A DNA stretch of 64,000 bases from Chthoniobacterales bacterium (GCA_049282095.1 JBAPTI010000035.1:11927-75926); one strand, 5' to 3'; counted from the first letter of the stretch, positions 2,513-46,223 are shown. Notes: generated from the letters alone by a model not told the origin. Made by a program: numbers and translations.

Positions 2513-3143
2513 GGCCGGTCTCCTCGGCTTTCACGGGGTCTTCACCCTCGTCGCCTTCCTCATCATCGTGATCCTCATCCTCGTCCTCGACGTATTCTTC
2601 CTCGATCTTGGCGAATTTCCTCTTCCGCTTGGCGGCGGGGAGGGGGCTCATGGTCATGCCGACGGCGCGGCCCACCAGCTTGGGGGGCATATCGACCAAG
2701 GCCATGGTTTCGAGATCCTTGATGATTTTCTGCATCATGGCGATGCCGAGGTCCTTGTGGGCGTTCTCACGACCACGGAACTGGAGGACCATCTTGAGCT
2801 TGTTGCCCTTCTCGAGGAACTCCTCGGCATGGCGGAGCTTCGTCTCGTAGTCATGCGTCCCGATCTTCACGCGGAACTTGATCTCCTTGATCTTGCTGGC
2901 GCTGTGCTTGCTCTCCTTCTCCTTCTTCGTCAGCTCGTACTTGAACTTGCCGAAGTCGGCGATGCGGCAGACGGGGGGATTGGCCGTGGGGGCCACCTCG
3001 ATCAGGTCGAGGCCGTACGATTTGGCGCGGCGGACGGCCTCGTCGGTCTTGAGGATGCCGAGTTGCTGGCCGGTGGAGCCGATGATGACGCGGACCTCGC
3101 GGGCGCGGATGCGGTCGTTGACGCGGATGAATGCAGGATTAAT
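2502..3143 (-). CDS. infC: translation initiation factor IF-3, initiating at ATT
   Basis: Track ORF (2502-2996) covers only the C-domain (VCRIADFGKFKYE, KFRVKIGTHDYETK). Reading upstream in frame gives INPAFIRVNDRIRAREVRVIIGSTGQQLGILKTDEAVRRAKSYGLDLIEV back to an ATT (complement of 3141-3143), two codons after an in-frame TGA. No ATG/GTG/TTG lies between. C-terminus carries an acidic tail EEEYVEDEDEDHDDEEGDEGED. Confidence 0.9.
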   Translation of the reverse strand: MNPAFIRVNDRIRAREVRVIIGSTGQQLGILKTDEAVRRAKSYGLDLIEVAPTANPPVCRIADFGKFKYELTKKEKESKHSASKIKEIKFRVKIGTHDYETKLRHAEEFLEKGNKLKMVLQFRGRENAHKDLGIAMMQKIIKDLETMALVDMPPKLVGRAVGMTMSPLPAAKRKRKFAKIEEEYVEDEDEDHDDEEGDEGEDPVKAEETGHAG

Positions 3144-3257
3144 GGGACTTCAATGCACCTGACGGTGCGGGGTTGTGCCGGCACGATGGCGCCAGCGGGT
3201 TAGGGACTGCAAAAGAGGGAAAACCAAGGGATTCAGGCAACGTGGTGTCATGCGCGC

Positions 3258-5099
3258 TCAGACTGTGAGCGTGCGGTCACGGATTTCGGATTCGATTCGT
3301 TGGATGAATTCATCTTTCGCGACGGCCCCTTCGTCGCCGCGTTGGCGGCTACGGATGGAGAGCTGGCCTGCGGCCTCCTCCTTGGGTCCGATGACGATCA
3401 TGTAGGGCACCTTCTCGACCTGGGCAAGGCGAATCTTGGCCCCGAGCTTCTCGGGGGAGAGGTCGGCGGTGGCGCGGATGCCCCGCGCGGTCATCTCGGC
3501 AACCACGGATCGGGCGTAGTCGGCCACCTTCTCGGAGACCGGAAGGATGCGCGCCTGCTCCGGGGCAAGCCAGACGGGGAAGTCGCCCGCAAAGTGCTCG
3601 ATGAGGACTCCCGTGAAGCGCTCAAGCGATCCGAAAGGGGCCCGATGGATCATCACCGGGACATGGGCCTTGCCGTCGGCCCCCGTGTAGGAGAGCTCGA
3701 AGCGGACGGGGAGGTTGAAGTCGACCTGGACGGTTCCAAGCTGCCATTCGCGGCCGAGCACGTCCTTGACGACAAAATCGATCTTGGGGCCGTAGAACGC
3801 GGCCTCCCCTTCCTCCTCGGTGAAGGGAACCCCGAGTGTCGCGGCGGCATCGCGGCAGGCCTGCTCGGCGCGATCCCAGTTGGCGGGATCACCCACATAC
3901 TTGTCTGAGGAGGGATCGCGGAGGCTGATGCGGACGCGGTAGTCGGTCATCCGGAAGGTGCCGAGCACGGTCTTCACGAGATCGAGGCAGCCCTTGAGCT
4001 CGCCGGCCATCTGCTCCTCGGTGACAAAGAGGTGGGCGTCGTCCTGGGTGAAGCCGCGGACGCGAGTCATGCCGTTGAGTTCGCCCGACTGCTCCCAGCG
4101 GTAGACGGTTCCGAACTCGGCAAGGCGCACGGGCAGGTCGCGGTAGCTGCGCGGCTGCGACGCGAAGATCTTCACGTGCATGGGGCAGTTCATCGGCTTG
4201 AGAAGGTAGCCGTCGATCTCGCCGGCGGAGACACGGTTGCCGAGGTCGGCGCAGGAGCATCCCTCGTCGGCCAGTTTCTCCATCCTGTCGCGCTCGATGA
4301 GCGGGGGGAACTGGGAATCGGCGTAGTAGGGGAAGTGGCCGGATGTGCGGAAGAGATCGAGGCGCCCGATATGCGGGGTGAAGACCTGCGAGTAGCCCTG
4401 CTTGGCCAGTTCCCCGCTGATGAAGTTCTGCATCTCCTGGCGCATGATCGCGCCCTTCGGGGTCCAGAGAATCAGGCCTTGGCCGACGGAATCGTCGATG
4501 TGGAAGAGGCCGAGTTCCTTGCCGACCTTGCGGTGATCGCGCTTCTTTGCCTCCTCGAGCAGGGCGAAGTGCTTCTCGAGTTCCTCGGCGGAGGCGAAGG
4601 CGGTGCCGTAGATGCGCTGGAGTTGGGGATTCTTCTCATCCCCCTGGTAGAAGGCGCTCGCCACATGGGTCAGTTTGAAGGCTCCGATCCCGGAGGTGGT
4701 GGGAACGTGGGGACCCGCGCAGAGGTCGGTGAAGGCACCGTTGCGATAGAGGGTGATCTCCTCGCCGGCGGGGATGCGGGTGATAATATCGAGCTTGAAC
4801 TTGCTCGGCTGGGGGCGGGGAGAGAGTCCCGCGAGTTCACCCCGTTCCCCCATGGCGAGGGCCTCGTCACGGGTGATGACCTCCCGTTGGAAGGGCTGGG
4901 CCTCGGCGATGATCGCGGCCATCTCCTTCTCGATCTTCTCAAAGTCCTCGGGGCTGATCCGGTGTCCCAGATCGACATCGTAGTAGAAGCCGTTATCGAC
5001 CGGGGGGCCGGCGGCGAACTGTGCCTCGGGCCAGATACGGAGGATGGCATTGGCCAGCACGTGGGCGCAGGAGTGCCGGATGGTTTCGAGTTCGGTCAT
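3258..5099 (-). CDS. thrS: threonine--tRNA ligase (lacks N-terminal TGS domain)
   Basis: HRKVGKELGLFH, YRWEQSGELNGMTRVRGFTQDDAHLF. Starts at the editing-domain block RHSCAHVLANAI; an in-frame TAG 7 codons upstream of the ATG excludes an N-terminal extension. Confidence 0.95.
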   Translation of the reverse strand: MTELETIRHSCAHVLANAILRIWPEAQFAAGPPVDNGFYYDVDLGHRISPEDFEKIEKEMAAIIAEAQPFQREVITRDEALAMGERGELAGLSPRPQPSKFKLDIITRIPAGEEITLYRNGAFTDLCAGPHVPTTSGIGAFKLTHVASAFYQGDEKNPQLQRIYGTAFASAEELEKHFALLEEAKKRDHRKVGKELGLFHIDDSVGQGLILWTPKGAIMRQEMQNFISGELAKQGYSQVFTPHIGRLDLFRTSGHFPYYADSQFPPLIERDRMEKLADEGCSCADLGNRVSAGEIDGYLLKPMNCPMHVKIFASQPRSYRDLPVRLAEFGTVYRWEQSGELNGMTRVRGFTQDDAHLFVTEEQMAGELKGCLDLVKTVLGTFRMTDYRVRISLRDPSSDKYVGDPANWDRAEQACRDAAATLGVPFTEEEGEAAFYGPKIDFVVKDVLGREWQLGTVQVDFNLPVRFELSYTGADGKAHVPVMIHRAPFGSLERFTGVLIEHFAGDFPVWLAPEQARILPVSEKVADYARSVVAEMTARGIRATADLSPEKLGAKIRLAQVEKVPYMIVIGPKEEAAGQLSIRSRQRGDEGAVAKDEFIQRIESEIRDRTLTV

Positions 5100-5101
5100 G
5101 G

Positions 5102-5213
5102 AAATGGGAGCTAGGAGCTAGGAGATAGGGTCTGGGGGAGAGGCTGAAGACTGAAGGCTGTTAGGTCAGAGGATGAGAAAATGGGAGTTGGGAGATAGGG
5201 TCTGGGGGAGAGG
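5102..5213. repeat. direct repeat in thrS leader: AAATGGGAG..GGAGATAGGGTCTGGGGGAGAGG x2
   Basis: 23-nt GGAGATAGGGTCTGGGGGAGAGG is identical at 5121-5143 and 5191-5213. Each copy is preceded by AAATGGGAG (5102-5110, 5179-5187). Confidence 0.9.
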
Positions 5214-5251
5214 GAAAATCAGAAAGCAGAAATCTGAAAACCCAGGATGAA

Positions 5252-5479
5252 TTATGAAGGATGAATGATGAAAGGAATCATCGACTCCGCAAGGAGTGAG
5301 GGGATGCCGTTCTTCACCGGGTAGGCGGCTTGGCCGTCCTCACGGACGAGGAACCCGTCGGCATCCTTCCCGTCGTCGGGGGAGATGGCGCGGAGTTCTT
5401 CCGGTGAGGCGATATGGAGCTGCTGCCCCGTGACGGGGCACCGTAGCAATGCCGAGAGTTCCGAAAGAAAATCCGCCAT
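5252..5479 (-). CDS. Trm112/YcaR-family small protein
   Basis: 75 aa with LLRCPVTGQQL and AYPVKNGIPSLL, the usual Trm112-family pattern. Start is 3 nt downstream of the moeB stop. Confidence 0.7.
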   Translation of the reverse strand: MADFLSELSALLRCPVTGQQLHIASPEELRAISPDDGKDADGFLVREDGQAAYPVKNGIPSLLAESMIPFIIHPS

Positions 5480-8005: not shown

Positions 8006-9067
8006 TCATCCCTCCGCAATCGCTCGGAATGCTTTCTCGATGGCTTTCCGGTGAGGGGATGGGATCGGAAGTCCCGGAAGCTCCTCCCTGCTGAAGTCGC
8101 GGACTTTGCCGGGCAAGGCACCCTTCACTGGAAACACCTTCATCGTGATGCTGTAACGGGTGATCGGGTAAGTCAGTTCCGAGATGGACCGGCCCGTGGG
8201 GGTCATGGTACCCAGTTCCGGAAGAATCCAGAGTCCTCGCCAGCGCGGCCCCTCCGATTGCTCAAGATGGAGTTTCTGGCCGCGTTGAAACCATGCACGG
8301 TGCTCTGTGAGCTTGGTGGTTACCCGGCGCGGTGATTTTTTGGGGAGCGTTTCCGGGGCGGTCGCCGAGCAGGTGCTCTTCACCGGGCAGGAGGTGCAGT
8401 CCGGTTTTCCTGCGGAGCAGACCATCGCCCCCAGATCCATGAGGGCCGAGGCGATCTCCCGGCATCCTGTTTCCGGGAAAAAGGATCCCGCGAGATTCGC
8501 GATGGCCTTCTTGCCGGGCGCGGTGTCGATCGGAATGGCGACATTCCCCCAGCGCGCCAGCACCCGGATGATGTTGGTGTCGAGTACCACGGCCGATCGG
8601 TCATGAGCGAAGGCCAGGATGGCCGCCGCCGTATAGGCGCCGATCCCGGGCAGCGCCAGAAGCGGTCCCTCCGTGTCGGGAACGCTTCCCCCGTGCCGCT
8701 CCATGATGGTTTTCGCAGCCGAGTGGAGTCGTCGGGCGCGCGAGTAATAGCCCAGCCCCTCCCATGCCGAGAGAACCTCCTGCTCGGAGGCGGCAGCGAG
8801 GGCCGGAAGGCTAGGGAAACGCTTCATCCAGTCGGCGAAGCGCGCGATCACGGTGGCCACCGTCGTCTGCTGGAGCATGAATTCCGAGACCAGCACGGCG
8901 TAAGGGGTGTTCTTGCGGCGCCATGGAAGATCATGGCGTCCCGCCCGTACGTGCCACGAGAGCAGTGCCCGGCGGGCAGACTTCGCGAGTCGCTCCGTCC
9001 GGATGGCTGTTTGCCCGGTTTTTGTTGTGATGGCTCTCTTCTTGTCCACGGAACGCTCGTAGGGCAC
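8006..9067 (-). CDS. mutY: A/G-specific adenine DNA glycosylase
   Basis: HDLPWRR..PYAVLVSEFMLQQTTV and 4Fe-4S loop CSAGKPDCTSCPVKSTC (C-x6-C-x2-C-x5-C). Track start is a GTG at 9067; start uncertain. Confidence 0.85.
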   Translation of the reverse strand: MPYERSVDKKRAITTKTGQTAIRTERLAKSARRALLSWHVRAGRHDLPWRRKNTPYAVLVSEFMLQQTTVATVIARFADWMKRFPSLPALAAASEQEVLSAWEGLGYYSRARRLHSAAKTIMERHGGSVPDTEGPLLALPGIGAYTAAAILAFAHDRSAVVLDTNIIRVLARWGNVAIPIDTAPGKKAIANLAGSFFPETGCREIASALMDLGAMVCSAGKPDCTSCPVKSTCSATAPETLPKKSPRRVTTKLTEHRAWFQRGQKLHLEQSEGPRWRGLWILPELGTMTPTGRSISELTYPITRYSITMKVFPVKGALPGKVRDFSREELPGLPIPSPHRKAIEKAFRAIAEG

Positions 9068-9071
9068 CTTG

Positions 9072-10022
9072 ATGGAAACCGCAAGCGATCCCGTGCCTCC
9101 CCCGATCCACTCCCAGACCTATCCCCTGACGATGGAGCAGGCTGACAGGCTCAGGGAGGTGCTCCGGGAGAGGGGTTTCACCTTCTCGGAGAAGCCTTAC
9201 ACGCTCTACGCCGCGACGAAGGAGAAGCTCAACGTAGCCGTCTATGAGAAAGGGCCCAAGGTTCTGATCCAGGGAAAGGGACTGGAGGATTTCATCACCT
9301 TCGTCATGGAGCCGGAGATCCTCGGCGAGGCCCGTCTCGGGTACGAGGAGGTTCATGAACCGGAGCAGTTTGAGCCTCATTTCGGCGTGGATGAGAGCGG
9401 CAAGGGGGATCTCTTCGGGCCGCTCGTGATCGCCGGGGTTTATGTGGATGGCGATCTCGCGAGGCATCTGCGCGACGCCGGCATCCGTGACAGCAAGGGA
9501 ATCGGAACGGACAGAAAAATCCGCGATCTGGCGGAAGTCATCCGCAAGTCGGGTGCTCCTTCCGAGCTGATCGTCATCGGTCCGGAAAAATACAACCAGC
9601 TCTACCGTTCCATCGGAAATCTCAACCGCCTTCTGGCCTGGGGCCATGCGCGCATCATCGAGAATCTCTGCGCTCGGGTTCCGGGTTGCCCGCGCGCCCT
9701 CTCCGACAAGTTCGCCGATGCCCGTGTCCTGCAGAAGGCCCTTCTGGAGAACGGCCGCAAGATCCGTCTCGACCAGCGCACCAAGGCGGAGAGCGACTAT
9801 GCGGTGGCGGCCGCCTCCATCCTTGCCCGCGAGGGATTCATCAACTGGCTCGACAAACATGGTGAAGAGCTTGGCGTGGAACTGGCCAAGGGGGTCTCGC
9901 CCAAGGTGAAGGCCGCCGCCGCGGAGATCATCGCCCAATACGGCCCGACCATGCTGCCGAAGGTGGCGAAAATGCACTTCAAGACGGCCGCGGAGGTGCT
10001 GACTGCCGCCGGAACCCTATGA
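9072..10022 (+). CDS. rnhC: ribonuclease HIII
   Basis: Catalytic block FGVDESGKGDLFGPLVIAGV preceded by an ~85-aa N-terminal domain (HIII architecture). First ATG at 9072 (track start is TTG 9069). Confidence 0.8.
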   Translation: METASDPVPPPIHSQTYPLTMEQADRLREVLRERGFTFSEKPYTLYAATKEKLNVAVYEKGPKVLIQGKGLEDFITFVMEPEILGEARLGYEEVHEPEQFEPHFGVDESGKGDLFGPLVIAGVYVDGDLARHLRDAGIRDSKGIGTDRKIRDLAEVIRKSGAPSELIVIGPEKYNQLYRSIGNLNRLLAWGHARIIENLCARVPGCPRALSDKFADARVLQKALLENGRKIRLDQRTKAESDYAVAAASILAREGFINWLDKHGEELGVELAKGVSPKVKAAAAEIIAQYGPTMLPKVAKMHFKTAAEVLTAAGTL

Positions 10023-16657: not shown

Positions 16658-16683
16658 TCAGGAACTCAAGAACTCAGGAATCA

Positions 16684-16877
16684 ATCCAAGGGAAACTGGT
16701 GCGGCGAAGCCGCAGCCCCAAGCGGCACCACTTGCGGGGAGGCAAGTGACGTCAACTCAGGGAAGAAACAGAAACTCTCGCGCAGAACCAAGCCTGTGGG
16801 AACAGGCGCGGAAGATCCTGCGAAAGCAGGACCCGTAAGGGCGGCACCGTCCGCCGGAAGGCGGATGCCCTCAAACG
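16684..16877 (+). repeat. hairpin-module repeat, locus 1 (one partial + one complete unit)
   Basis: Complete unit 16785-16877: GAACCAAG, CCTGT-GGGA-ACAGG, CGCGGAAGAT, CCTGC-GAAA-GCAGG, CCC-GTAA-GGG, GGCA-CCG-TCCGCC-GGAA-GGCGGA-TGCC, CTCAAACG. Partial unit 16684-16756. Confidence 0.7.
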
Positions 16878-21043: not shown

Positions 21044-21113
21044 GATGCCGCGCTAGGCGTGCGAGCGAAGCTGTAGTGAACTACTGCGAGCGAGCAGCAA
21101 CAACGCGCGGCGC
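21044..21113. repeat. GATGCCGCGCTAGGCG...GCAACAACGCGCGGCGC repeat, short copy
   Basis: Both ends match 42829-43015 (GATGCCGCGCTAGGCG[T/C]GCGAG and ACTACTGCGAGCGAGC[A/G]GCAACAACGCGCGGCGC). Termini GCCGCGC / GCGCGGC are inverted repeats. Confidence 0.7.
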
Positions 21114-21138
21114 GAAAAGAACCAGCCCAGTCTTTTCC

Positions 21139-22227
<1,089 letters not shown>

Positions 22228-33863: not shown

Positions 33864-34149
33864 GATGCGTGAAAGGGTGATACGTTAAAAAGCTAATTCA
33901 CAAGACTTGGGCACCCGCAATGCGGTGCGCTTTTAACGCAGTTACAAGGTTAGAATGTGAAAGGTTAAAAAAGGTGCAGAGGGCCGAGTTCAGTCCTTCA
34001 ACTTTTCAACTTTCGCTCCAACGGGGCGAGCCCATTGGGGGCGACCGGCCCAATTATCTGCCGGTCGTCCCCGACCAGGCATCCTCTCCCACAGGCGTGG
34101 AATCGGACTACCTTCGGTATGATTAAGCCGCCTTCCTAGGCGCCTTTTG

Positions 34150-34213
34150 CCCAACAGCCCAACAGCCCAACAGCCCAACAGCCCAACAGCCCAACAGCCC
34201 AACAGCCCAACAG
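34150..34213. repeat. perfect tandem octamer array (CCCAACAG)x8
   Basis: Eight uninterrupted CCCAACAG units at 34150-34213, ending 3 nt from the stop codon (34217-34219) of the TPR gene. Confidence 0.95.
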
Positions 34214-34216
34214 CCT

Positions 34217-35644
34217 TTAGCTTTTCGCGTAGGAGGACTCCACCTTCGCCGCCACGTCGCGATACCCGTAATCCACTTCGTAGATCTGCTTGAAGCAATC
34301 GAGCGCCTTTTCCCGATCATCCATCGTTTCGTAGACGGTTCCGAGGTTGTAGAGGAGATCCTTCTTCACCGAATCCATGGCAGAAAGTTCGGAAATGGCA
34401 TCGGCAAAGGTCTTGGCCGCCAGATCGTTCATGCTTCGAGACACATAGCACTGGCCAAGCTTGCTCATCGCCTTTAGGCGGACGCTCGGGTTGCTGCGCG
34501 CCCGCTGGAGGTGTCCGATCGCCTCCTGCGGTTGGCCCGCATCCATGAGTGCCACAGCCAGGTCGAAATGGGCAAGCAGGTCTGTGGGATTGCGCTCCAC
34601 GCGCTCACGCGCGTCACTCAGGACAAAATCGGCACGCTGTTTGGCGAGTTCCTCCATCTCCTGCCGGTAGAGGGGAGCGTCCGGATCGTCCGGTGACGCG
34701 GCAAGGAACTCCTCGCGGGCCTTGTAGGCATCGTTGATGCGGCGGAGTTGCAGATCGCTGATCTTGCGCGCGATGGTGGGATCGGCACCCGCAGTCAGCC
34801 CCAGGACATATCGATACCACTCGAGGGCGTTGTCGATGTCCCCTTTCTGCTCGCAGAGTTCGGCAACCTTGCGCGACTTGTCGATGCTGCCCGGTTCGGC
34901 CTGCACGGCGGCGGAGAGTTCGGCGATCTGGTTGTCGATCATCTCCTCGCTCTTGACCACGCGACCCTGCTGCTCGAGGGAAACGGCCTCCTCCTTGTTC
35001 TTGATGAGGTCGCGGTAGCTGTCGGCCACTTCCCAGCCACCCTTCTGGACGGTCATTGCCGCGGAGGCGTCCTTGCTCCCCTTGATGGCCGTGAGGTCGT
35101 TGGGGGAGATGACAAGGATGCGGTTGTAGATCTCGACAGCGCGGGCGGGATCCCGGGGACTTCCGTTCTCATCCTTCTCCATGCAGAAGGAGGCAAACCG
35201 GGAGAGCTGCTGCTTGTCCTTGGGTTGGCCTTCGAGAATGGTCTCGAAAGCATAGAAGGCGAGCTCCTTCATCGGGGGTTGCCACTTGAGGGCGATCTCC
35301 TGAAGCATCGTGTTCGCCTGAGCATTGCGCGGGTCGTCGGCCAGCACTTCCTCAATGGCAACCAGAGCCGCGGAGAGATCATTCTTCTTGAGAAGGGCCG
35401 AGACCTTCATCAGGGCAATCGAGGATCCTCCGCCGAATCCCGAGAAAAACCCCTTCTTTGCGGTCTTGGATTTCTCAACGGCGGCCTTCCGCGCCATCTT
35501 CCTTCCATCCAGAAAATCGGGAAGGGTCTGCAACAGCCCCTGGCAGAGCTGAATGACATAGGGATAGTTCTTCAGCTCCATGGCGCTCATTGCCTTGAGC
35601 CATGTCTGCTTCTGCTGCGGGGAGAGGTCTTTCTGTGTTTTCAA
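34217..35644 (-). CDS. tetratricopeptide-repeat protein
   Basis: Multiple TPR-like A/Y/L-patterned helices through the C-terminal 400 aa. The track ORF to 35899 would overlap the upstream gene; TTG at 35644 or ATG at 35590 is a more plausible start. Confidence 0.6.
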   Translation of the reverse strand: MKTQKDLSPQQKQTWLKAMSAMELKNYPYVIQLCQGLLQTLPDFLDGRKMARKAAVEKSKTAKKGFFSGFGGGSSIALMKVSALLKKNDLSAALVAIEEVLADDPRNAQANTMLQEIALKWQPPMKELAFYAFETILEGQPKDKQQLSRFASFCMEKDENGSPRDPARAVEIYNRILVISPNDLTAIKGSKDASAAMTVQKGGWEVADSYRDLIKNKEEAVSLEQQGRVVKSEEMIDNQIAELSAAVQAEPGSIDKSRKVAELCEQKGDIDNALEWYRYVLGLTAGADPTIARKISDLQLRRINDAYKAREEFLAASPDDPDAPLYRQEMEELAKQRADFVLSDARERVERNPTDLLAHFDLAVALMDAGQPQEAIGHLQRARSNPSVRLKAMSKLGQCYVSRSMNDLAAKTFADAISELSAMDSVKKDLLYNLGTVYETMDDREKALDCFKQIYEVDYGYRDVAAKVESSYAKS

Positions 35645-35691: not shown

Positions 35692-36636
35692 TCAGGATGC
35701 TGCCGGGGCTCCAAAAAACGAGGGAGTGACCGAAAGCGAGGCGGTGAGTGTTTCGCCGGCCCCGATTCTCTGAATTCCCTTTTTCTGATCGAAGGGGACG
35801 GGAGGATTGCCATCGGGCAGTCCCCAGCAGGGTTCGACGCACAGGAACGGATCCCCGTTGCTCCAGAGCGTGAGGAACGGCGCCTCCGCGTAGTCGCACT
35901 CGACGCGCTGGCCGAGCGCCGGAGCCTCCAGCACGAACCGCCGATCCGGCACTCCGGAAAGGTCGAGCAGGAATGATCCCGGAAGGTCTTTCTTGGCAAA
36001 GGGCATCTCGCCGCCGGCAAAAGGGATCTCCATCACGCTTCCATCGAGAAAATCACCGGGCGCCATCTCTCTCACATAGGTGCCTTCGGGGAGAATCATC
36101 CGGGCACTTTCGAGGGAACCGACGGCGAACCCCGGATGCCACCCGAAGCTCAGGGCCACGGCGTGCTCCTCACGGTTTTCAAAGGCGAAGGTCATTGTCA
36201 TTTTTCCCCCGGATACCGCGTAGGTCAGGCGCATCGCCACCTTGTAGGGATAGGCATCGGCGGGGATCTCGGATGGCTCCACGCAATAGGTGATCGTTCC
36301 TGAGGCAAGATCGACCTCAGGAGGCCGGAAGGCATGGCTGCGGATGAAACCGTGGTTGCCGCCCTTGATCACATGCCCCTCGTAGACCGATTCCTGTTTC
36401 CAGAGGCGATGGACGAAGTACCCCATCACCGTGGCATGATTTCCCCAGCCGGACGCGGGCTTGGCGACCTCGCTATCGCGCCAGAGAAATCCTCGCCATG
36501 CACCTTTGTCATCCCTACGGGCCAGACTCACCGGTTCGGCCCCGGTGCGAGCAATGATCAGGCGGATCCCTCGGGAGGTATCCTCAAGCTGATCAAGGGG
36601 ACCGACTTCGGAATCAATGACAAGGTGGGTAAACAT
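35692..36636 (-). CDS. aldose 1-epimerase-family (mutarotase-like) protein
   Basis: 314 aa with SFGWHPGFAV and overall beta-rich pattern typical of the LacX/YeaD group. Family call from memory. Confidence 0.65.
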   Translation of the reverse strand: MFTHLVIDSEVGPLDQLEDTSRGIRLIIARTGAEPVSLARRDDKGAWRGFLWRDSEVAKPASGWGNHATVMGYFVHRLWKQESVYEGHVIKGGNHGFIRSHAFRPPEVDLASGTITYCVEPSEIPADAYPYKVAMRLTYAVSGGKMTMTFAFENREEHAVALSFGWHPGFAVGSLESARMILPEGTYVREMAPGDFLDGSVMEIPFAGGEMPFAKKDLPGSFLLDLSGVPDRRFVLEAPALGQRVECDYAEAPFLTLWSNGDPFLCVEPCWGLPDGNPPVPFDQKKGIQRIGAGETLTASLSVTPSFFGAPAAS

Positions 36637-36690
36637 GGGAAAAGGATGAATGATGGATTATGTATGATGAAGCTTTAAGAAAAACAACCC

Positions 36691-37050
36691 ATGCAACCAG
36701 CACTCCTCCGCGACGAAGACCTTCGGGAGTCCTTTGCACGCTCTTCGGGGCCGGGAGGCCAGCATGTCAACAAGGTATCCACTGCCGTCACCCTGACCCA
36801 TCTTCCGAGCGGCATCTCGGTCACCGTGAGCGACTCACGCAGCCAGAGCATGAACCGAAAGATCGCCCGTGAGCGACTTGCCGAAAAACTGGAGGAACGC
36901 CGTCTGGCCCGCCGACTCCAGGCACGGGCCGCCACGGCAAAAGCCCGCCGTCAAAAAGCCCGCCGCTCCCCGGGCGAGAAACGGAAACTCGTCGAGGGAA
37001 AACGTCGACGCTCGGAGATCAAGAAGGGGCGCGGCAGGGTGAGCGAGTGA
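36691..37050 (+). CDS. arfB: peptidyl-tRNA hydrolase ArfB (RF-1 domain, GGQ) ribosome-rescue factor
   Basis: GPGGQHVNKVSTAV plus a basic C-terminal tail (KARRQKARRSPGEKRK); 119 aa. Confidence 0.8.
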   Translation: MQPALLRDEDLRESFARSSGPGGQHVNKVSTAVTLTHLPSGISVTVSDSRSQSMNRKIARERLAEKLEERRLARRLQARAATAKARRQKARRSPGEKRKLVEGKRRRSEIKKGRGRVSE

Positions 37051-37136
37051 GCGGGTGGTTAAACCCGGAATTTTGCATTGGGAATTTCTGAGATCATAGG
37101 AGGCCGTGTTAAAAGAGTTAAAACGGTGAAATGTTA

Positions 37137-37483
37137 CAACCAAGGCTCTGAAACGAGACCATGGGGTGGTCGAGTTGTAGCCACCGAAGGTGGACCCAAA
37201 GGGTGAGCCTTGCGGAAGCAAGCGAGTACAAAAGAGCCGCGTAAGATCCCGCGAATGCGGGACCCAAAGGGCGCCACCGCTTGCCGACCGCCGAGTGCCT
37301 GGTGGCACGGCGTAGCCTGTCCCACTAATGCCGGGACAGTCCCGAAAGGGACGAACCAAACACCCGGGAGGGTGTGCGGAAGACTGCGACTCTGTCGCTG
37401 CCCTCAGGGTGCCGCGGCTTCCCGGGAGGGAAGCGGCATCAATGCATCGGGAGATGCTGAGGCAAAGGCAAGTGGCGTCAACG
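37137..37483 (+). ncRNA. candidate structured RNA: ~350-nt array of diverged hairpin modules (locus 2)
   Basis: No credible ORF. Perfect stems with GNRA/GAA loops, all on the + strand: 37181-37193, 37209-37222, 37248-37261, 37340-37351, 37361-37374, 37410-37438, 37444-37457; a 7-bp stem at 37317-37339. Best unit 37353-37444 aligns with units at 16785, 41089 and 45799(-). Confidence 0.45.
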
Positions 37484-37692
37484 TGGATCCGGGAGAGCCC
37501 CGACCTGAGATTAGGGAGAGGGATATCAGGGAAAGTGCCCTCAAAAGATGCCTTCATGAATTCAATTCGGCCTCTGACTTCAGCCCGTTGTAACCTTTTA
37601 ACGGTGTAACCCTTTTAACCTTTTTTACCCTTACCTTCTCGCATCCCCCTTTTTCATTTCATCATTCATCAATCATCATTCATCATTTCCCC

Positions 37693-38589
37693 ATGGATCT
37701 TCTCACCTGCGACCTGCCCGGCATCAAGAAACTCCGCAGCGGCAAAGTCCGCGAGGTCTTCGATCTTGGCGAACACCTGCTACTGGTGGCCACCGACCGC
37801 ATCTCGGCCTTCGACTGCATCCTGCCCAACGCCATCCCGGGCAAGGGGGAGGTGCTCAACGGCCTCTCGACATTCTGGTTCCACCGCCTCGACTTCGTCC
37901 CCAACCACATGATCGAGACCGAGGTCTCGGCCTTCCCCGCCGAACTCAAGCCCTACGCCGACATCCTGCGTGGACGCTCGATGATCGCGAAGAAGGCGAA
38001 GCCGCTCCCTGTCGAGTGTGTCGTCCGCGGCTATGTCGCCGGATCCGGTTGGAAGGAATACCAGGAAAGCGGCACCGTTGGCGGTTACGCCGTGCCGGCA
38101 GGACTCAAGCAATGCGACCGTCTTCCCGAAGATCTCTTCACCCCGAGCACCAAGGCCGACGAGGGACATGACGAGCCGATCACCTGGGCCCAGTGCCGTG
38201 CGCTTCTCGGCGACGAAACAGCGCTCCGCGTCCGCGACATGAGCCTTGAGCTCTACCGCCACGGCCGTGCCTATGCCGCCTCCCGCGGCATCATCATCGC
38301 CGACACCAAGTTCGAGTTCGGCATCCACGACGGCGAGATCATCCTAATCGACGAGTGCATGACTCCGGACTCCTCCAGGTTCTGGCCGGCCGACCAATAT
38401 CAACCGGGCGGCAACCCCCCCAGCTTCGACAAGCAGTTCGTACGCGACTGGCTCGAGAACTGCGGCTGGGACAAGCACCCCCCAGCTCCCGAACTCCCGG
38501 CGGACATCGTCGCCAAGACGGCCGAGAAATACCGCGAGGCACTGATCCGCCTCACGGCTTCGGCTCCCTCAACTGCCTCGGCGACCTGA
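37693..38589 (+). CDS. purC: phosphoribosylaminoimidazole-succinocarboxamide synthase
   Basis: KVREVFDLGEHLLLVATDRISAFD, full-length 298 aa. Confidence 0.95.
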   Translation: MDLLTCDLPGIKKLRSGKVREVFDLGEHLLLVATDRISAFDCILPNAIPGKGEVLNGLSTFWFHRLDFVPNHMIETEVSAFPAELKPYADILRGRSMIAKKAKPLPVECVVRGYVAGSGWKEYQESGTVGGYAVPAGLKQCDRLPEDLFTPSTKADEGHDEPITWAQCRALLGDETALRVRDMSLELYRHGRAYAASRGIIIADTKFEFGIHDGEIILIDECMTPDSSRFWPADQYQPGGNPPSFDKQFVRDWLENCGWDKHPPAPELPADIVAKTAEKYREALIRLTASAPSTASAT

Positions 38590-39705: not shown

Positions 39706-39945
39706 GTGAGAACTACGTATACAGTGACTCAGGCACAGGCTGCCCTTCCCCGCCTTCTCAAACAGGCCAAGACAGATCTTGTGACCGTGACCCGCCGGGA
39801 CGAGCCCGTGGCTTTTCTCGTATCGCGGGAACGGATGGAAGCCTTCGTCGAAACCCTCGAAATCATGGCTGATCCGGCAGCCATGAAGCAGGTGCAGGAT
39901 TACGAGCGAGGGAAGATGAAGTTCCACCCTCTTCCTGAAGAGTGA
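39706..39945 (+). CDS. Phd/YefM-family antitoxin
   Basis: 79 aa, QAQAALPRLLKQAKTDLVTVTRRDEPVAFLVS. GTGA overlap with the downstream toxin. Confidence 0.75.
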   Translation: MRTTYTVTQAQAALPRLLKQAKTDLVTVTRRDEPVAFLVSRERMEAFVETLEIMADPAAMKQVQDYERGKMKFHPLPEE

Positions 39946-40229
39946 GTCCCGTTGTTTCCCTTCAGGTTCTGGAGTTCCTCCAGAACCTACCCCCCGAACC
40001 CAGGCGGGCACTTCGACTTGGAATCAAACGACTCCCCAAACACCTTGGCGACATCCGCCCCCTCGAGGGGAAGTTGCGGGATTATTACCGACTTCGCGTC
40101 GGCAGTTATCGGGTGATCTTCAAGCGACGCATGGAGAAAGGGAATTCATTGGTGGAATGTCTCTATGTGAATCGCCGATCCATCGTGTACGAAGTCTTTG
40201 AAAAACTGGCAGGGCATCCCGAGGCATAA
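39942..40229 (+). CDS. RelE/ParE-family toxin
   Basis: 95 aa, YYRLRVGSYRVIFKR core typical of RelE/ParE. Confidence 0.75.
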   Translation: MSPVVSLQVLEFLQNLPPEPRRALRLGIKRLPKHLGDIRPLEGKLRDYYRLRVGSYRVIFKRRMEKGNSLVECLYVNRRSIVYEVFEKLAGHPEA

Positions 40230-41068: not shown

Positions 41069-41088
41069 GTTTGAAAAACCTGAAGGCT

Positions 41089-41178
41089 GAACCAAGTCGC
41101 CGGGAAGCGACGCGGAAGACTGCCGAAGGCAGCCCGTCAGCGGTGGCACGGCTTGCCGGGAGGCAAGTGCCATCAACG
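41089..41178 (+). repeat. hairpin-module repeat, locus 3 (single unit, flanked by AAACCTGAA direct repeats)
   Basis: GAACCAAG, TCGCC-GGGA-AGCGA, CGCGGAAGA, CTGCC-GAA-GGCAG, GGCA-CGG-CTTGCC-GGGA-GGCAAG-TGCC, ATCAACG. AAACCTGAA at 41076-41084 and 41182-41190. Confidence 0.75.
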
Positions 41179-42639
41179 TTGAAACCTGAAAAGAAACAGA
41201 AGGGATCCAATAAACGTATTCCCTCCTCACCTCTTCAGGTTTCACGCTTCAAATCTTATCCTTCTCTCGAGCGGGATCTCCGCAAGCTGATCCCCCTCGC
41301 CTCGGGGCTCATCACCGATCCCGCGCGCCTCGCCGAACTGGGGAAGGACAAGTGGTTCGCCGCCTCCCTTCCCGAGATCGCGGTCGCTCCCGGATCCGCC
41401 AAGGAGGTCGCCGCCGTGCTCGGCTATGCCGATCGGCACAACATCCCCGTCACCACCCGGGGCGCCGGCCACGGCTACGTCGGGGGTTGCGTCCCCGTCC
41501 GCGGTGGCATCCTGATGAGCATGCACCGGATGAACCGCATCCGCGAGATCAGCTGTGACGACTTCGTCGCCGTGGTGGAGCCGGCCATCATCACGGGCGT
41601 GCTTCAGACGGAGGTTGTCAAAAAAGGGCTCTTCTACCCGCCCGATCCGCAGAGCTACAAGGACTGCTCCCTCGGGGGGAACATCGCCACCAATGCCGGC
41701 GGCCCTCGTTGCCTGAAATACGGAGTCACCCGCCCCTATGTCCTCGGCCTCCAGGTAGCACTGGCCGACGGCACCCTTGTCCGCGTCGGTGGACGCACCC
41801 ATAAGAACAAGACCGGCTTCGATCTCGTCGGGATGTTCGTCGGTTCCGAAGGAATGCTCGGCGTCATCACCGAAGCGACCCTGCGACTCCTCCCTCTCCC
41901 CCCCGCCCGCGTCACCCTTTCCGCCGGATTCGGATCGATGCGCGATGCCGCCGCCGCCGTGCAGGCGATCTTCAAGGCCGGATACCTCCCCTGTGCCGTG
42001 GAAGTTGCGGACAGTTTCACGCTTCAGTCAGCCAGGGATGCCCACAAGGAGGTGAAGGGAACCTTCATTCCGCCCGGTAAGGCTCATCTGCTTGTCGAGA
42101 TTGATGGCCAGAAGGCTAGCGTCCTGAGCGAAGGAAAGGCCCTCAAGGCCCTCCTCGCCAAGAACAAGGCCCTCGAGGTCGAGCTGGCCACCTCACCCGA
42201 GCGTTGCGACCGGATGTGGGCCCTGCGCCGCGCCTTCTCGGCATCGCTGAAGGCCACCGGCCTCACCAAGCTCAACGAGGATATTGCCGTCCCACGCGGC
42301 CGACTCGTCGACCTTATTGCCTTCGCGGAGAAACTGCAGAAAAAGACTGGCTTCCCGATCGCCTGCTTCGGTCACGCCGGGGATGGCAACATCCATGTGA
42401 ATGTCATGGTCTCCAAGGAACAGCAGGCCAAGCGTCCCAAGGAGATCGAGGGGGTTCTCGATGCGCTCTTCTCGCAGGTCATCAGGTGGGGCGGAGCGAT
42501 TACCGGCGAGCACGGCATCGGCCTCGCCAAGAAACGCTGGTGGAACGCCGCCACGACTCCGGAACTCCGCAACCTGCACATGCGGATCAAATCCGCCGTC
42601 GATCCAAAGGATATCCTGAATCCCGGAAAGTTCGTATGA
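41179..42639 (+). CDS. FAD-binding oxidase (glycolate oxidase GlcD / D-lactate dehydrogenase family)
   Basis: VTTRGAGHGYVGG, CSLGGNIATNAGGPRCLKYG, C-terminal GEHGIGLAK. Start uncertain: the track TTG 41071 would translate the repeat unit; TTG 41179 is the first start after it. Confidence 0.8.
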   Translation: MKPEKKQKGSNKRIPSSPLQVSRFKSYPSLERDLRKLIPLASGLITDPARLAELGKDKWFAASLPEIAVAPGSAKEVAAVLGYADRHNIPVTTRGAGHGYVGGCVPVRGGILMSMHRMNRIREISCDDFVAVVEPAIITGVLQTEVVKKGLFYPPDPQSYKDCSLGGNIATNAGGPRCLKYGVTRPYVLGLQVALADGTLVRVGGRTHKNKTGFDLVGMFVGSEGMLGVITEATLRLLPLPPARVTLSAGFGSMRDAAAAVQAIFKAGYLPCAVEVADSFTLQSARDAHKEVKGTFIPPGKAHLLVEIDGQKASVLSEGKALKALLAKNKALEVELATSPERCDRMWALRRAFSASLKATGLTKLNEDIAVPRGRLVDLIAFAEKLQKKTGFPIACFGHAGDGNIHVNVMVSKEQQAKRPKEIEGVLDALFSQVIRWGGAITGEHGIGLAKKRWWNAATTPELRNLHMRIKSAVDPKDILNPGKFV

Positions 42640-42828: not shown

Positions 42829-43015
42829 GATGCCGCGCTAGGCGCGCGAGGGTGGGCGTAGAAAAGGCGTGTGGGAACGCGGCTTTGCTTCTCCTTCGTC
42901 GATGTCATTCGAGGAATAGGCTGAGAAGTCCTTGGATCAGCAGATCCAAAGATGCCTGATCGGGGAAGATCGGCAGACAAAACTACTGCGAGCGAGCGGC
43001 AACAACGCGCGGCGC
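42829..43015. repeat. GATGCCGCGCTAGGCG...GCAACAACGCGCGGCGC repeat, long copy
   Basis: Same termini as 21044-21113, with additional internal sequence. Confidence 0.7.
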
Positions 43016-43042
43016 CAAAATCCCAAGCCTTTAAGCGGTTGA

Positions 43043-45493: not shown

Positions 45494-45654
45494 TTGGAAG
45501 CTGGGAGCTTGGAGTTGGAAGCTGGGTATTTGTAACTACTGCCTCCGCCAAATCTCCAAACTCCTATCCTCCAACTCCCGGATTAGCCTTATGGGTCAAG
45601 GTTGTTAGGCTTTCCGTCTTTTAGGCTGTTGGGTTGGGTTTTTTGGATGCCGCA

Positions 45655-45698
45655 TCCAACAGTCCAACAGTCCAACAGTCCAACAGTCCAACAGTCCA
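45655..45698. repeat. tandem octamer array (TCCAACAG)x5 + partial
   Basis: Five perfect TCCAACAG units at 45655-45694 plus TCCA. One base different from the 34150 array unit. Confidence 0.95.
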
Positions 45699-45705
45699 TT
45701 CAGGT

Positions 45706-45799
45706 TTGACGGCACTTGCCTCCCGGCAAGCCGTGCCGCCCTTTTAGGGCTGTTCGCTGCGCTCACAGTCTACCGCGCCCGAACCCTCGGGCTTGGTTC
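45706..45799 (-). repeat. hairpin-module repeat, locus 4 (single unit, minus strand)
   Basis: The reverse complement reads GAACCAAG, CCCGA-GGGT-TCGGG, CGCGGTAGA, CTGT..ACAG, CCC-TAAAA-GGG, GGCA-CGG-CTTGCC-GGGA-GGCAAG-TGCC, GTCAAAC. TTCAGGTTT direct repeats at 45699-45707 and 45797-45805. Confidence 0.75.
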
Positions 45800-45867: not shown

Positions 45868-46223
45868 GGGGGCGTACTGGTTTCGACTCGAAGCTCATTG
45901 CGCGTTCTGCATGCCGAGGATGATTCGTTGGCCTCGTAAAAAATCGGATCAAACAAACAAACGCAGATTACGAAGATCTAGCTCTCGCGGCCTAAAGTCC
46001 GCGACGCTGACACACCGACGCCTGCTAGGTGTGAAGGCGACGACAGCAGGCTGATTCCTTGGCGGATTGACCGCGCCGGGGAGTGACTCGATTCCGTGGT
46101 CGATCGGGGGAAAGCAGCGCGCCGCACCGTGGCCGACCCCTTAAATCCCAAGTGCGGTCAAGCATGTGGACGGACGCCTAGTGCGGTTCGGGGACAGGGG
46201 TTCGACTCCCCTCGCCTCCACCA
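45868..46223 (+). ncRNA. ssrA: transfer-messenger RNA (tmRNA)
   Basis: 5' GGGGGCG pairs with 3' CGCCTCC, including the G3:U pair, followed by ACCA. T-arm GGGGTTCGACTCCCC. Internal tag frame GCA GAT TAC GAA GAT CTA GCT CTC GCG GCC TAA (45963-45995) encodes ADYEDLALAA. Confidence 0.85.

Follow-up and report, generated by a model that had tools for sequence, protein, structure and literature searches.

BOX elements of Streptococcus pneumoniae and the ERIC (IRU) elements of enterobacteria are modular, structured, and transcribed noncoding intergenic repeats of ~100–300 nt; BOX elements vary in module number (boxB), and ERIC elements attain longer forms via inserts at fixed internal sites. GTAG-type REPs are reportedly abundant in the verrucomicrobium Opitutus terrae, where they lie mostly downstream of genes and often contain G.T pairs, the latter taken to suggest roles at the RNA level (PMC3733652). 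Here, we describe a structured block in the spacer between arfB and purC in a 64,000-nt stretch of DNA from a Chthoniobacterales bacterium (GCA_049282095.1, JBAPTI010000035.1:11927-75926; hereafter the window, in whose positions all coordinates are given). An initial annotation, made from the sequence alone, had proposed this block as a candidate large structured RNA. We consider it fairly probable that the block is instead one copy of a non-autonomous, structure-dependent interspersed repeat family of freshwater Chthoniobacterales (“Spartobacteria,” Verrucomicrobiota), passively transcribed at this locus. The underlying module family is high-copy and previously undescribed, no description of it having been found in the literature; on the best-supported reading, its behavior is closest to that of REP/BIME, BOX, and ERIC.

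A family of four-hairpin modules

The segment after fabI (41079–41176) aligns to positions 37341–37442 of the block with compensatory changes in the stems, which, together with a 75-bit covariance match within the block, upholds the earlier suggestion that the block contains the same module as that described at 41076–41190. The module is ~88 nt long and comprises four hairpins, for the most part with GGGA caps, in the order GAACCAA-H1-GCGG[A/U]AGA-H2-H3-H4-UCAA. H1 is a 6-bp stem with a GGGA loop; H2 (CUGCC-GAA-GGCAG) is variable in length; H3 has the form CCC-N3-4-GGG; and H4 reads Y-GGCA, a CSG bulge, and then CUUGCC-GGGA-GGCAAG-UGCC-R. The linkers (GAACCAA, GCGG[A/U]AGA, and UCAA) are conserved, purine-rich, and single-stranded.

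Scanning one genome per species with the seed pattern GAACCAA-N16-GCGGAAGACTGC returned 39 loci, several metagenome-assembled genomes (MAGs) contributing more than one. The titles of 37 of these designate Verrucomicrobiota, Spartobacteria, or Chthoniobacterales MAGs; the other two are a locus titled “uncultured bacterium” (L027), which looks like a chance match, and a genuine match titled Proteobacteria (L042). The latter (RFPR01000007.1, “Proteobacteria bacterium WB4_3_0938”) carries two high-scoring modules of 110.7 and 81.1 bits, and its contig or bin is probably misassigned and actually verrucomicrobial.

A covariance model built from module copies (R1) recovered 93 copies from related loci totaling 376 kb and, among the matches listed for a loose pattern, 117 from 687 kb of metagenome contigs of freshwater and bog origin; as a specificity control, it found no copies in 888 kb of viral contigs matching the loose pattern, again among the matches listed. 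Across 88 distinct copies, standard pairs occupy 93.7% of alignment cells, as opposed to 34%–55% when the 3′ partners are slid, and at 24 of 25 pairs both partners vary; shuffles never attain these values. G.U pairs outnumber A.C pairs (60 vs. 30), and the GGGA loop is retained in H1 of 59 copies and H4 of 51. Because of this excess and these loops, the conserved strand is taken to be the strand shown, in agreement with the initial choice of the plus strand as the informative one. GAACCAA is present in 62 of the 88 copies and UCAA in 67, while the linker preceding H2 reads GCGGAAGA in 49 and GCGGUAGA in 12. No protein is encoded alongside the modules; an all-against-all blastp comparison of neighboring proteins, conducted on 8-kb MAG pieces, returned syntenic orthologs only and no recurrent family.

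Searches of Rfam 15 at gathering and E-value thresholds yielded nothing relevant for the entire window, for the arfB–purC spacer or the short module separately, or for six related loci, so that the prospect of a known RNA, raised at the outset, finds no footing there. Only the tmRNA in the window passes a gathering threshold, and the best matches within 36900–37800 and 41070–41195 are to unrelated eukaryotic or sRNA models (E > 1, <19 bits). Querying plasmid and phage collections with blastn likewise returned no match. In the window, R1 recognizes five strong and two weak copies. Those outside the nested element, as well as one weak copy overlapping it, are as follows, with R1 scores:

41089–41176, plus strand: canonical short module, 21 nt past the stop codon of fabI (111.4 bits)
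16785–16874, plus strand: short module (80.6 bits)
16678–16755, plus strand: degenerate copy near the preceding one (31.8 bits)
45706–45799, minus strand: short module upstream of the tmRNA gene, antisense to both neighbor genes (84.1 bits)
34035–34150, minus strand: weak, expanded copy beside a (GCCCAACA)n array (18.4 bits, E 0.0065)
37215–37308: weak copy (R1)

The fabI-site module is found in seven relatives and is absent in two (L004 and L005). The minus-strand copy at 45706–45799 is flanked by a 9-nt direct repeat, AAACCTGAA; the nearby tmRNA gene (45868–46223; Rfam RF00023, 134 bits) is closely preceded, on the other strand, by a module together with an array of tandem repeats.

The nested element and the history of its locus

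Coverage of the block by other loci in blastn rises at ~37138 and falls at ~37481, delimiting a composite repeat of 344 nt that is near-intact at 12 further loci, spread over at least five genomes (13 near-full copies aligned). The repeated unit therefore stops well short of 37548, where the block had been taken to end, and its recurrence at no fewer than 12 unrelated loci in several genomes is incompatible with a large RNA gene specific to this locus. The parts of the element are:

37138–37481, plus strand: complete composite repeat, 344 nt, outer module with nested inserts
37137–37143, plus strand: 5′ tail of the outer module, (C)AACCAA, equivalent of GAACCAA
37144–37148, plus strand: 5′ strand of outer H1, GGCUC, with partner GAGCC (centroid fold)
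37149–37233, plus strand: H1-loop insert, 85 nt, a degenerate module-like unit (in 5 of 12 long copies)
37234–37238, plus strand: 3′ strand of outer H1, GAGCC (centroid fold)
37239–37246, plus strand: outer linker GCGUAAGA, variant of GCGG[A/U]AGA
37247–37262, plus strand: outer H2, U CCCGC GAAU GCGGG A (H2 position covaries across the family)
37263–37271, plus strand: outer H3 mini-hairpin, CCC AAA GGG
37272–37285, plus strand: 5′ strand of outer H4, C GCCA CCG CUUGCC, pairing with 37467–37477 across 181 nt
37286–37466, plus strand: H4-loop insert (“B unit”), 181 nt (mean pairwise identity 91% over 13 copies)
37353–37442, plus strand: complete inner module within the B unit (R1 75.2 bits, E 3.5e-17)
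37467–37477, plus strand: 3′ strand of outer H4, GGCAAG UGGC G
37478–37481, plus strand: 3′ tail of the outer module, UCAA

The architecture is nested, not tandem, with covarying long-range closing helices; what had been parsed as three to four diverged tandem copies are copies lodged in each other's hairpin loops. In the outer H4 helix, 95%–96% of cells are paired over the 13 copies, with compensatory changes at 6 of 11 pairs, the observed variants being CUUGCC/GGCAAG, UCCGCC/GGCGGA, and CUUCU/GGAAG, then GGCA/UGCC and GCCA/UGGC, with a closing C-G or U-A. Outer H1 is replaced by GCCCG/CGGGC at the equivalent places in L028 and L037. The thermodynamic centroid recovers both long-range helices, and minimum free energy (MFE) and centroid structures both keep the nested fold.

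Each insert has hairpins of its own. Those of the H1-loop insert lie at 37181–37193 (GAA loop), 37195–37203 (CCC AAA GGG), and 37209–37222 (GGAA loop), and in L023, this GGAA loop carries a further unit of 77 nt. The B unit contains hairpins at 37289–37312, 37317–37339, 37340–37351, and 37444–37457, as well as a tail, UGAGGCAAA; its inner module consists of H1 (37360–37375), the linker GCGGAAGA, H2 (37384–37400), H3 (37401–37409), H4 (37410–37438), and the tail UCAA. The 3′ end of the B unit (…GGGAGAUG-CUGAGGCAAA) is followed directly by an H4-type 3′ strand in 17 of the 17 places found. A simple 10-nt target duplication for the B insert was considered and rejected; its left copy remains GCCGAGUG(A/C)C even in elements whose outer helix is UCCGCC/GGCGGA. 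Further inserts of other copies always occupy terminal loops, and inserts of 47–95 nt are found in H2 of L026, L015, L179, and L265.

The strong structure initially ascribed to the block is borne out by folding. MFE z-scores are −5.0 (37100–37580) and −4.5 (37137–37482), with 0 of 100 shuffles folding as well, and the plus strand carries six perfect hairpins (stem of at least 4 bp, GNRA or GAA loop) where the minus strand carries none and 500 dinucleotide shuffles give a mean of 0.13 and a maximum of 2. The complementary strand folds equally well (z −5.5 and −5.0), as expected of a hairpin array. The hairpins listed in the initial annotation (37181–37193, 37209–37222, 37248–37261, 37340–37351, 37361–37374, 37410–37438, and 37444–37457) are all in place, as are the stem 37317–37323/37333–37339, the two occurrences of ACCCAAAGGG (37194–37203 and 37262–37271), and the linker variants GCGTAAGAT (37239–37247) and TGCGGAAGA (37375–37383). 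An exception to the description of their loops as GNRA or GAA is GAAU (37253–37256), which is not GNRA. Similarly, the GCCACC of a suggested long-range GCCACC/GGTGGC pair exists, though at 37273–37278 rather than 37272–37277, and the pairing is not kept in other copies; GUGCC/GGCAC (37295–37308) forms a local hairpin that covaries with GUGAC/GUCAC, and the long-range partner of GCCAC is GUGGC at 37473–37477.

The spacer that houses the element is 642 nt long (37051–37692), and its setting is as follows:

36691–37050, plus strand: arfB, RF-1 domain peptidyl-tRNA hydrolase, 119 aa, upstream flank (Pfam RF-1, E 4e-28)
37482–37604, plus strand: extra spacer DNA absent from orthologous spacers (92% identity, with the non-orthologous L023 only)
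37693–38589, plus strand: purC (SAICAR synthetase), downstream flank (Pfam SAICAR_synt, E 1e-76)

Comparison of relatives indicates that the block is an insertion at arfB–purC and not a conserved feature of the locus. It is absent from all 16 orthologous spacers recovered (16/16), which span 67–245 nt; spacer lengths are 177 nt in L001 (97% PurC identity), 165 nt in L038, 245 nt in L004 (91%), and 67 nt in a group with 93%–94% PurC identity. Homology of the relatives to the window ends at 37034–37063 and resumes at 37586–37648. L023 was considered as an orthologous locus and rejected, its match being limited to the element and ~140 nt on its right, with different flanks. The contig L045 (99% identity) begins at the equivalent of window position 37591, 110 nt past the 3′ end of the element at 37481 and inside the non-homologous spacer DNA adjoining it, as would follow from assemblies breaking at the repeat. 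The long copies group into subfamilies 96%–99% identical within a genome, with an overall mean of 91%; fabI in the same genomes is 92%–97% identical, and 78%–90% at third codon positions.

An AT-rich motif, GGTTAAAAGG/CCTTTTAACC, also recurs in spacers as imperfect inverted repeats (window 37108–37141, 37588–37621, and 33930–33975; L001 3005–3110; L004 4765–4945; and the L038 spacer). In arfB–purC spacers longer than 160 nt, this motif brackets a variable central segment, and the element in the window sits within that segment.

Repeat or functional RNA

Intergenic regions were classified on a gene map drawn from a codon-usage model that reproduces known genes. There are 56 non-redundant module-bearing regions; 17 lie at a locus edge and are unclassed, and the remaining 39 are distributed as follows:

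Between co-directional genes: modules 21 of 39, background 210 of 331
Between convergent genes: modules 14 of 39, background 64 of 331 (enriched)
Between divergent genes: modules 4 of 39, background 57 of 331 (depleted)

Of the co-directional regions, 13 are sense and 8 antisense, a bias that is not significant. Copies sharing one intergenic region are almost always co-oriented, with a single inverted pair in L214, and many copies start 4–30 nt after a stop codon, in the orientation of that gene.

These habits resemble those of REP/BIME sequences, repetitive extragenic palindromes that bear a GTAG tag and are mobilized by RAYT Y1 transposases. They too are high-copy, GC-rich hairpins of intergenic DNA, found mostly 3′ of genes and where the neighbors are convergent or co-directional; their stems divide by covariation into subfamilies and accept G.T pairs, and they form mosaic clusters with no terminal inverted repeats. 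GUAG directly precedes several stems in the composite (37177–37180 and 37312–37315). However, the module is 88 nt long, with four hairpins and conserved linkers, whereas a REP is a single palindrome of 20–40 nt, and the usual tag is GAAG(A) rather than GTAG, so that the family's G[A/U]AG corresponds to GTAG only in part. The inverted doublets (head-to-head or tail-to-tail) that predominate among REPs are not the rule here; unlike REPINs, module copies are co-oriented rather than paired head-to-head, and boundary direct repeats are present. BOX and ERIC share with the module a modular, structured, noncoding, and intergenic character with inserts, but have no sequence similarity to it and fold as one long imperfect palindrome formed by two ends, whereas the module is a row of independent hairpins that expands inside terminal loops.

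Correia elements (CREE/NEMIS), other miniature inverted-repeat transposable elements (MITEs), and Rickettsia palindromic elements are similarly non-autonomous, polymorphic between close relatives, and co-transcribed with their neighbors, but the module lacks terminal inverted repeats and appears to have no defined target duplication, of TA or otherwise. In all aligned copies, its two ends (5′ GAACCAAG and 3′ GCCGUCAA) are non-complementary, and a derivation from DDE transposons as a MITE was rejected for this lack of terminal inverted repeats. In L263, two modules (3092–3179 and 4781–4868) are read through in frame (…SPIDGTFLPETGAAAAELPSAVFRSCSHEFGSQ…) within a long minus-strand glycosyltransferase-like open reading frame (ORF), resembling the in-frame insertions of Rickettsia palindromic elements and intragenic REPs; this region is a segmental duplication of ~1.7 kb.

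Direct repeats straddling the module boundaries average 4.9 nt, compared with 3.65 ± 0.16 nt in permutations. About one quarter of copies have boundary repeats of 8–10 nt of the form AANNNTGA, a clear example being AAACCTGA|ACCAAG…GUC|AAACCTGA, and the rest have 3–5 nt. Among traits of the IS200/IS605 palindrome-associated transposable elements, the UCAA 3′ end and the lack of inverted repeats fit; boundary duplications do occur, and the 4 nt preceding each copy show no conservation. Neither TnpA nor TnpB was encountered in the module-bearing loci, and the HEARO model gave no match.

These comparisons are consistent with a sequence of events in which copies would spread via a trans-acting enzyme that recognizes the folded single strand, single-stranded DNA being the most REP/RAYT-like option for the substrate. 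Such recognition would explain why four stems, GNRA loops, and linkers are conserved on one strand. The 344-nt element, along with ~200 nt of other DNA, would have entered the arfB–purC spacer in this lineage only, and is probably simply transcribed along with arfB and purC. In that transcript, it may at most act as a passive structured spacer, for example as a barrier to 3′ exonucleases, and would not be a purC-specific regulator; a stack of stabilizing or insulating hairpins, as the initial annotation had offered, is possible as a passive side effect.

Several observations weigh against this interpretation. The alignment used to assess covariation was fitted to the structure of the model, and the seed pattern fixed GAACCAA and GCGGAAGACTGC beforehand. 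Recovered loci included no clean pair of filled and empty sites at high identity, and the insertion boundaries and target-site duplication are accordingly statistical inferences; the fabI site compared with L004, and the tmRNA site compared with L036, are too diverged to define the boundaries of short modules. No mobilizing enzyme, RAYT included, was identified, though the search, a phmmer query with an IS200 TnpA against ~1.5 Mb of module-bearing loci, is a weak negative. Conservation of four stems together with loops and linkers exceeds the requirements of known REPs or MITEs and would fit a folded functional RNA equally well, and the confinement of inserts to terminal loops, with closing helices kept, is the pattern of a functional structured RNA.

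The likeliest alternative, which we hold possible albeit with low confidence, is that the modules are host-domesticated cis-acting RNA elements of 3′ untranslated regions (UTRs) and intercistronic spacers, in which, the lineage lacking U-tract terminators, stacked GNRA hairpins would terminate transcription or keep 3′ exonucleases out; here, the block would stabilize the arfB message or insulate arfB from purC. The many copies 4–30 nt past stop codons and co-oriented with the gene, the enrichment between convergent genes, and the two-to-one ratio of G.U to A.C speak for such a role. The region is likewise purine-rich and structured throughout on its plus strand and lacks canonical terminators, a scan of the spacer having found no plus-strand terminator-like site in 36600–37800 and no plus-strand promoter. 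The block is not itself an intrinsic terminator (a GC-rich hairpin with a U tract), because it has no U tract, the modules ending in UCAA. However, the excess of sense over antisense in co-directional regions is not significant, the block is dispensable at every one of the 16 orthologous loci, and a simple exonuclease barrier needs no sequence-specific conservation of linkers and loops.

The modules could also be a self-nesting, fold-dependent mobile element that targets its new copies, or larger B-type units, specifically to the GNRA terminal loops of copies already present, an idea that we regard as doubtful. If true, it would mean that ever more ornate RNAs are built with each host helix preserved, and would imply either that mobility operates at the RNA level, in a retro- or ribozyme-like way, or that bacteria have a bona fide mobile noncoding RNA (ncRNA) with a defined structure.

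It is unlikely that the 344-nt composite is a large “ornate” ncRNA, multi-copy and mobile in the manner of HEARO/omega RNA, GOLLD, or ROOL, with a compact tertiary fold built on GNRA loops and A-rich linkers. Like these RNAs and OLE, the block measures several hundred nucleotides and has many GNRA-capped helices and covarying long-range closing helices, and some of the large RNAs are themselves multi-copy and mobile. Its interior is 91% conserved across species where third codon positions of fabI reach 78%–90%, and the confinement of inserts to terminal loops and the retention of the nested fold by MFE and centroid also speak for such an RNA. But no Rfam family matches, large RNAs included; there is no conserved upstream promoter or flank, and no associated protein gene comparable with IscB/TnpB for HEARO or OapA/B for OLE. 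Furthermore, these RNAs have a unique multi-domain fold, whereas the block is built of a repeated small module and grades continuously into short 88-nt copies through many intermediates.

Spread via an RNA intermediate, as a retroelement resembling short interspersed nuclear elements (SINEs) or another RNA-level mobile element with the RNA fold as its signal and existing tetraloops as its landing sites, appears very unlikely. Variable-length boundary direct repeats of up to 10 nt, A-rich 3′ ends (UCAA, GGCAAA), the lack of terminal inverted repeats, strand-specific conservation, and self-nesting in loops would all suit it. Yet the SINE-like excess of 5′ truncation is missing (77 of the 93 copies are full length, three are truncated at the 5′ end, and two at the 3′ end), none of the copies was seen to have a reverse transcriptase nearby, and the 5′ end of the B unit mismatches a simple target-site duplication in L007-type copies.

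Finally, the suggestions that the block serves purC as a 5′ leader or riboswitch, or is coding sequence for the 240-aa minus-strand ORF at 36835–37557, are refuted by the comparative data and retain next to no probability: although purC follows the block in the same orientation and the long ORF exists, the block is present at unrelated loci and missing from every orthologous purC upstream region (an absence named beforehand as telling against the initial proposal), it is no leader because it is not conserved there, no riboswitch family matches, and the ORF, which a Pfam search assigned to no family and which overlaps arfB in antisense, cannot exist in the relatives and is a shadow ORF, as initially supposed.

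Accompanying repeats and significance of the family

The intergenic DNA of this lineage is also rich in short tandem arrays of 7–8-nt units, among them GCCCAACA (nine copies), GTCCAACA, TGGGAGC, TTCATCA, CAATCAG, GAAAAGT, GTCGAGC, and ATCAACA. Arrays occur in the window at 34149–34225, 45654–45698, 5105–5129, 21853–21876, and 37658–37687, and in L022 at 1150–1420 and 2790–2930; they often abut modules or sit just upstream of start codons, and their density is 2.7-fold higher where a module lies within 200 nt (p = 0.0015). The tandem unit is sometimes identical to the boundary direct repeat of the adjacent module, as for GGGAACT beside AACTGGGA in L044. L022 (5331 nt) holds low-GC accessory genes, nucleotidyltransferase-, Fic/DOC-, and PIN-like by eye, that are split by kilobase-scale noncoding stretches consisting of serial tandem-repeat arrays followed by co-oriented modules; it contains one full long element and a deletion variant at 5160–5331.

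The inverted pair in L214 (7805–7893, plus strand, and 9102–9190, minus strand) consists of equal-scoring modules around a nucleotidyltransferase (MNT-like) ORF at 8346–8753, and may constitute a composite mobile unit. Modules are often followed by a second repeat family (…GUAGCAGUNCUACGCCGA…GCAGGCCAACNCAGC… / AACTACTGCGAGCGAGCAGCAACAACGCGCGGCGC), with two window copies (21079–21127 and 42981–43029) that are 88% identical and others in L006 (1095–1150), L020, L029, L035, and L004 (1780–1900). Between an xerC-like integrase gene and fabI, the window also carries a two-gene cassette (39724–40229) that is present in L001, L024, and L038 and absent in L004 and L002; its first gene is PhdYeFM antitoxin-like in L001.

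For annotation, these results remove a false lead, as the block is neither a purC riboswitch nor a unique large RNA; they also indicate that assemblies of this lineage break at the element, with L045 as a case. R1 and the consensus are usable at once on public lake metatranscriptomes and time-series metagenomes; Lake Mendota and similar series are the source of several of the MAGs. More broadly, the modules constitute a new repeat family, high in copy number, from a freshwater bacterial group that is abundant yet uncultured, and one that is unusual for a repeat both in its structural constraint, with four covarying stems, fixed GNRA loops, and fixed linkers, and in its growth by insertion into the terminal loops of its own hairpins. 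If a RAYT-like or other enzyme is responsible, REP-type biology would extend to multi-hairpin substrates; if the structure acts as RNA, the family would represent a widespread 3′-UTR element in a phylum with almost unexplored RNA biology.

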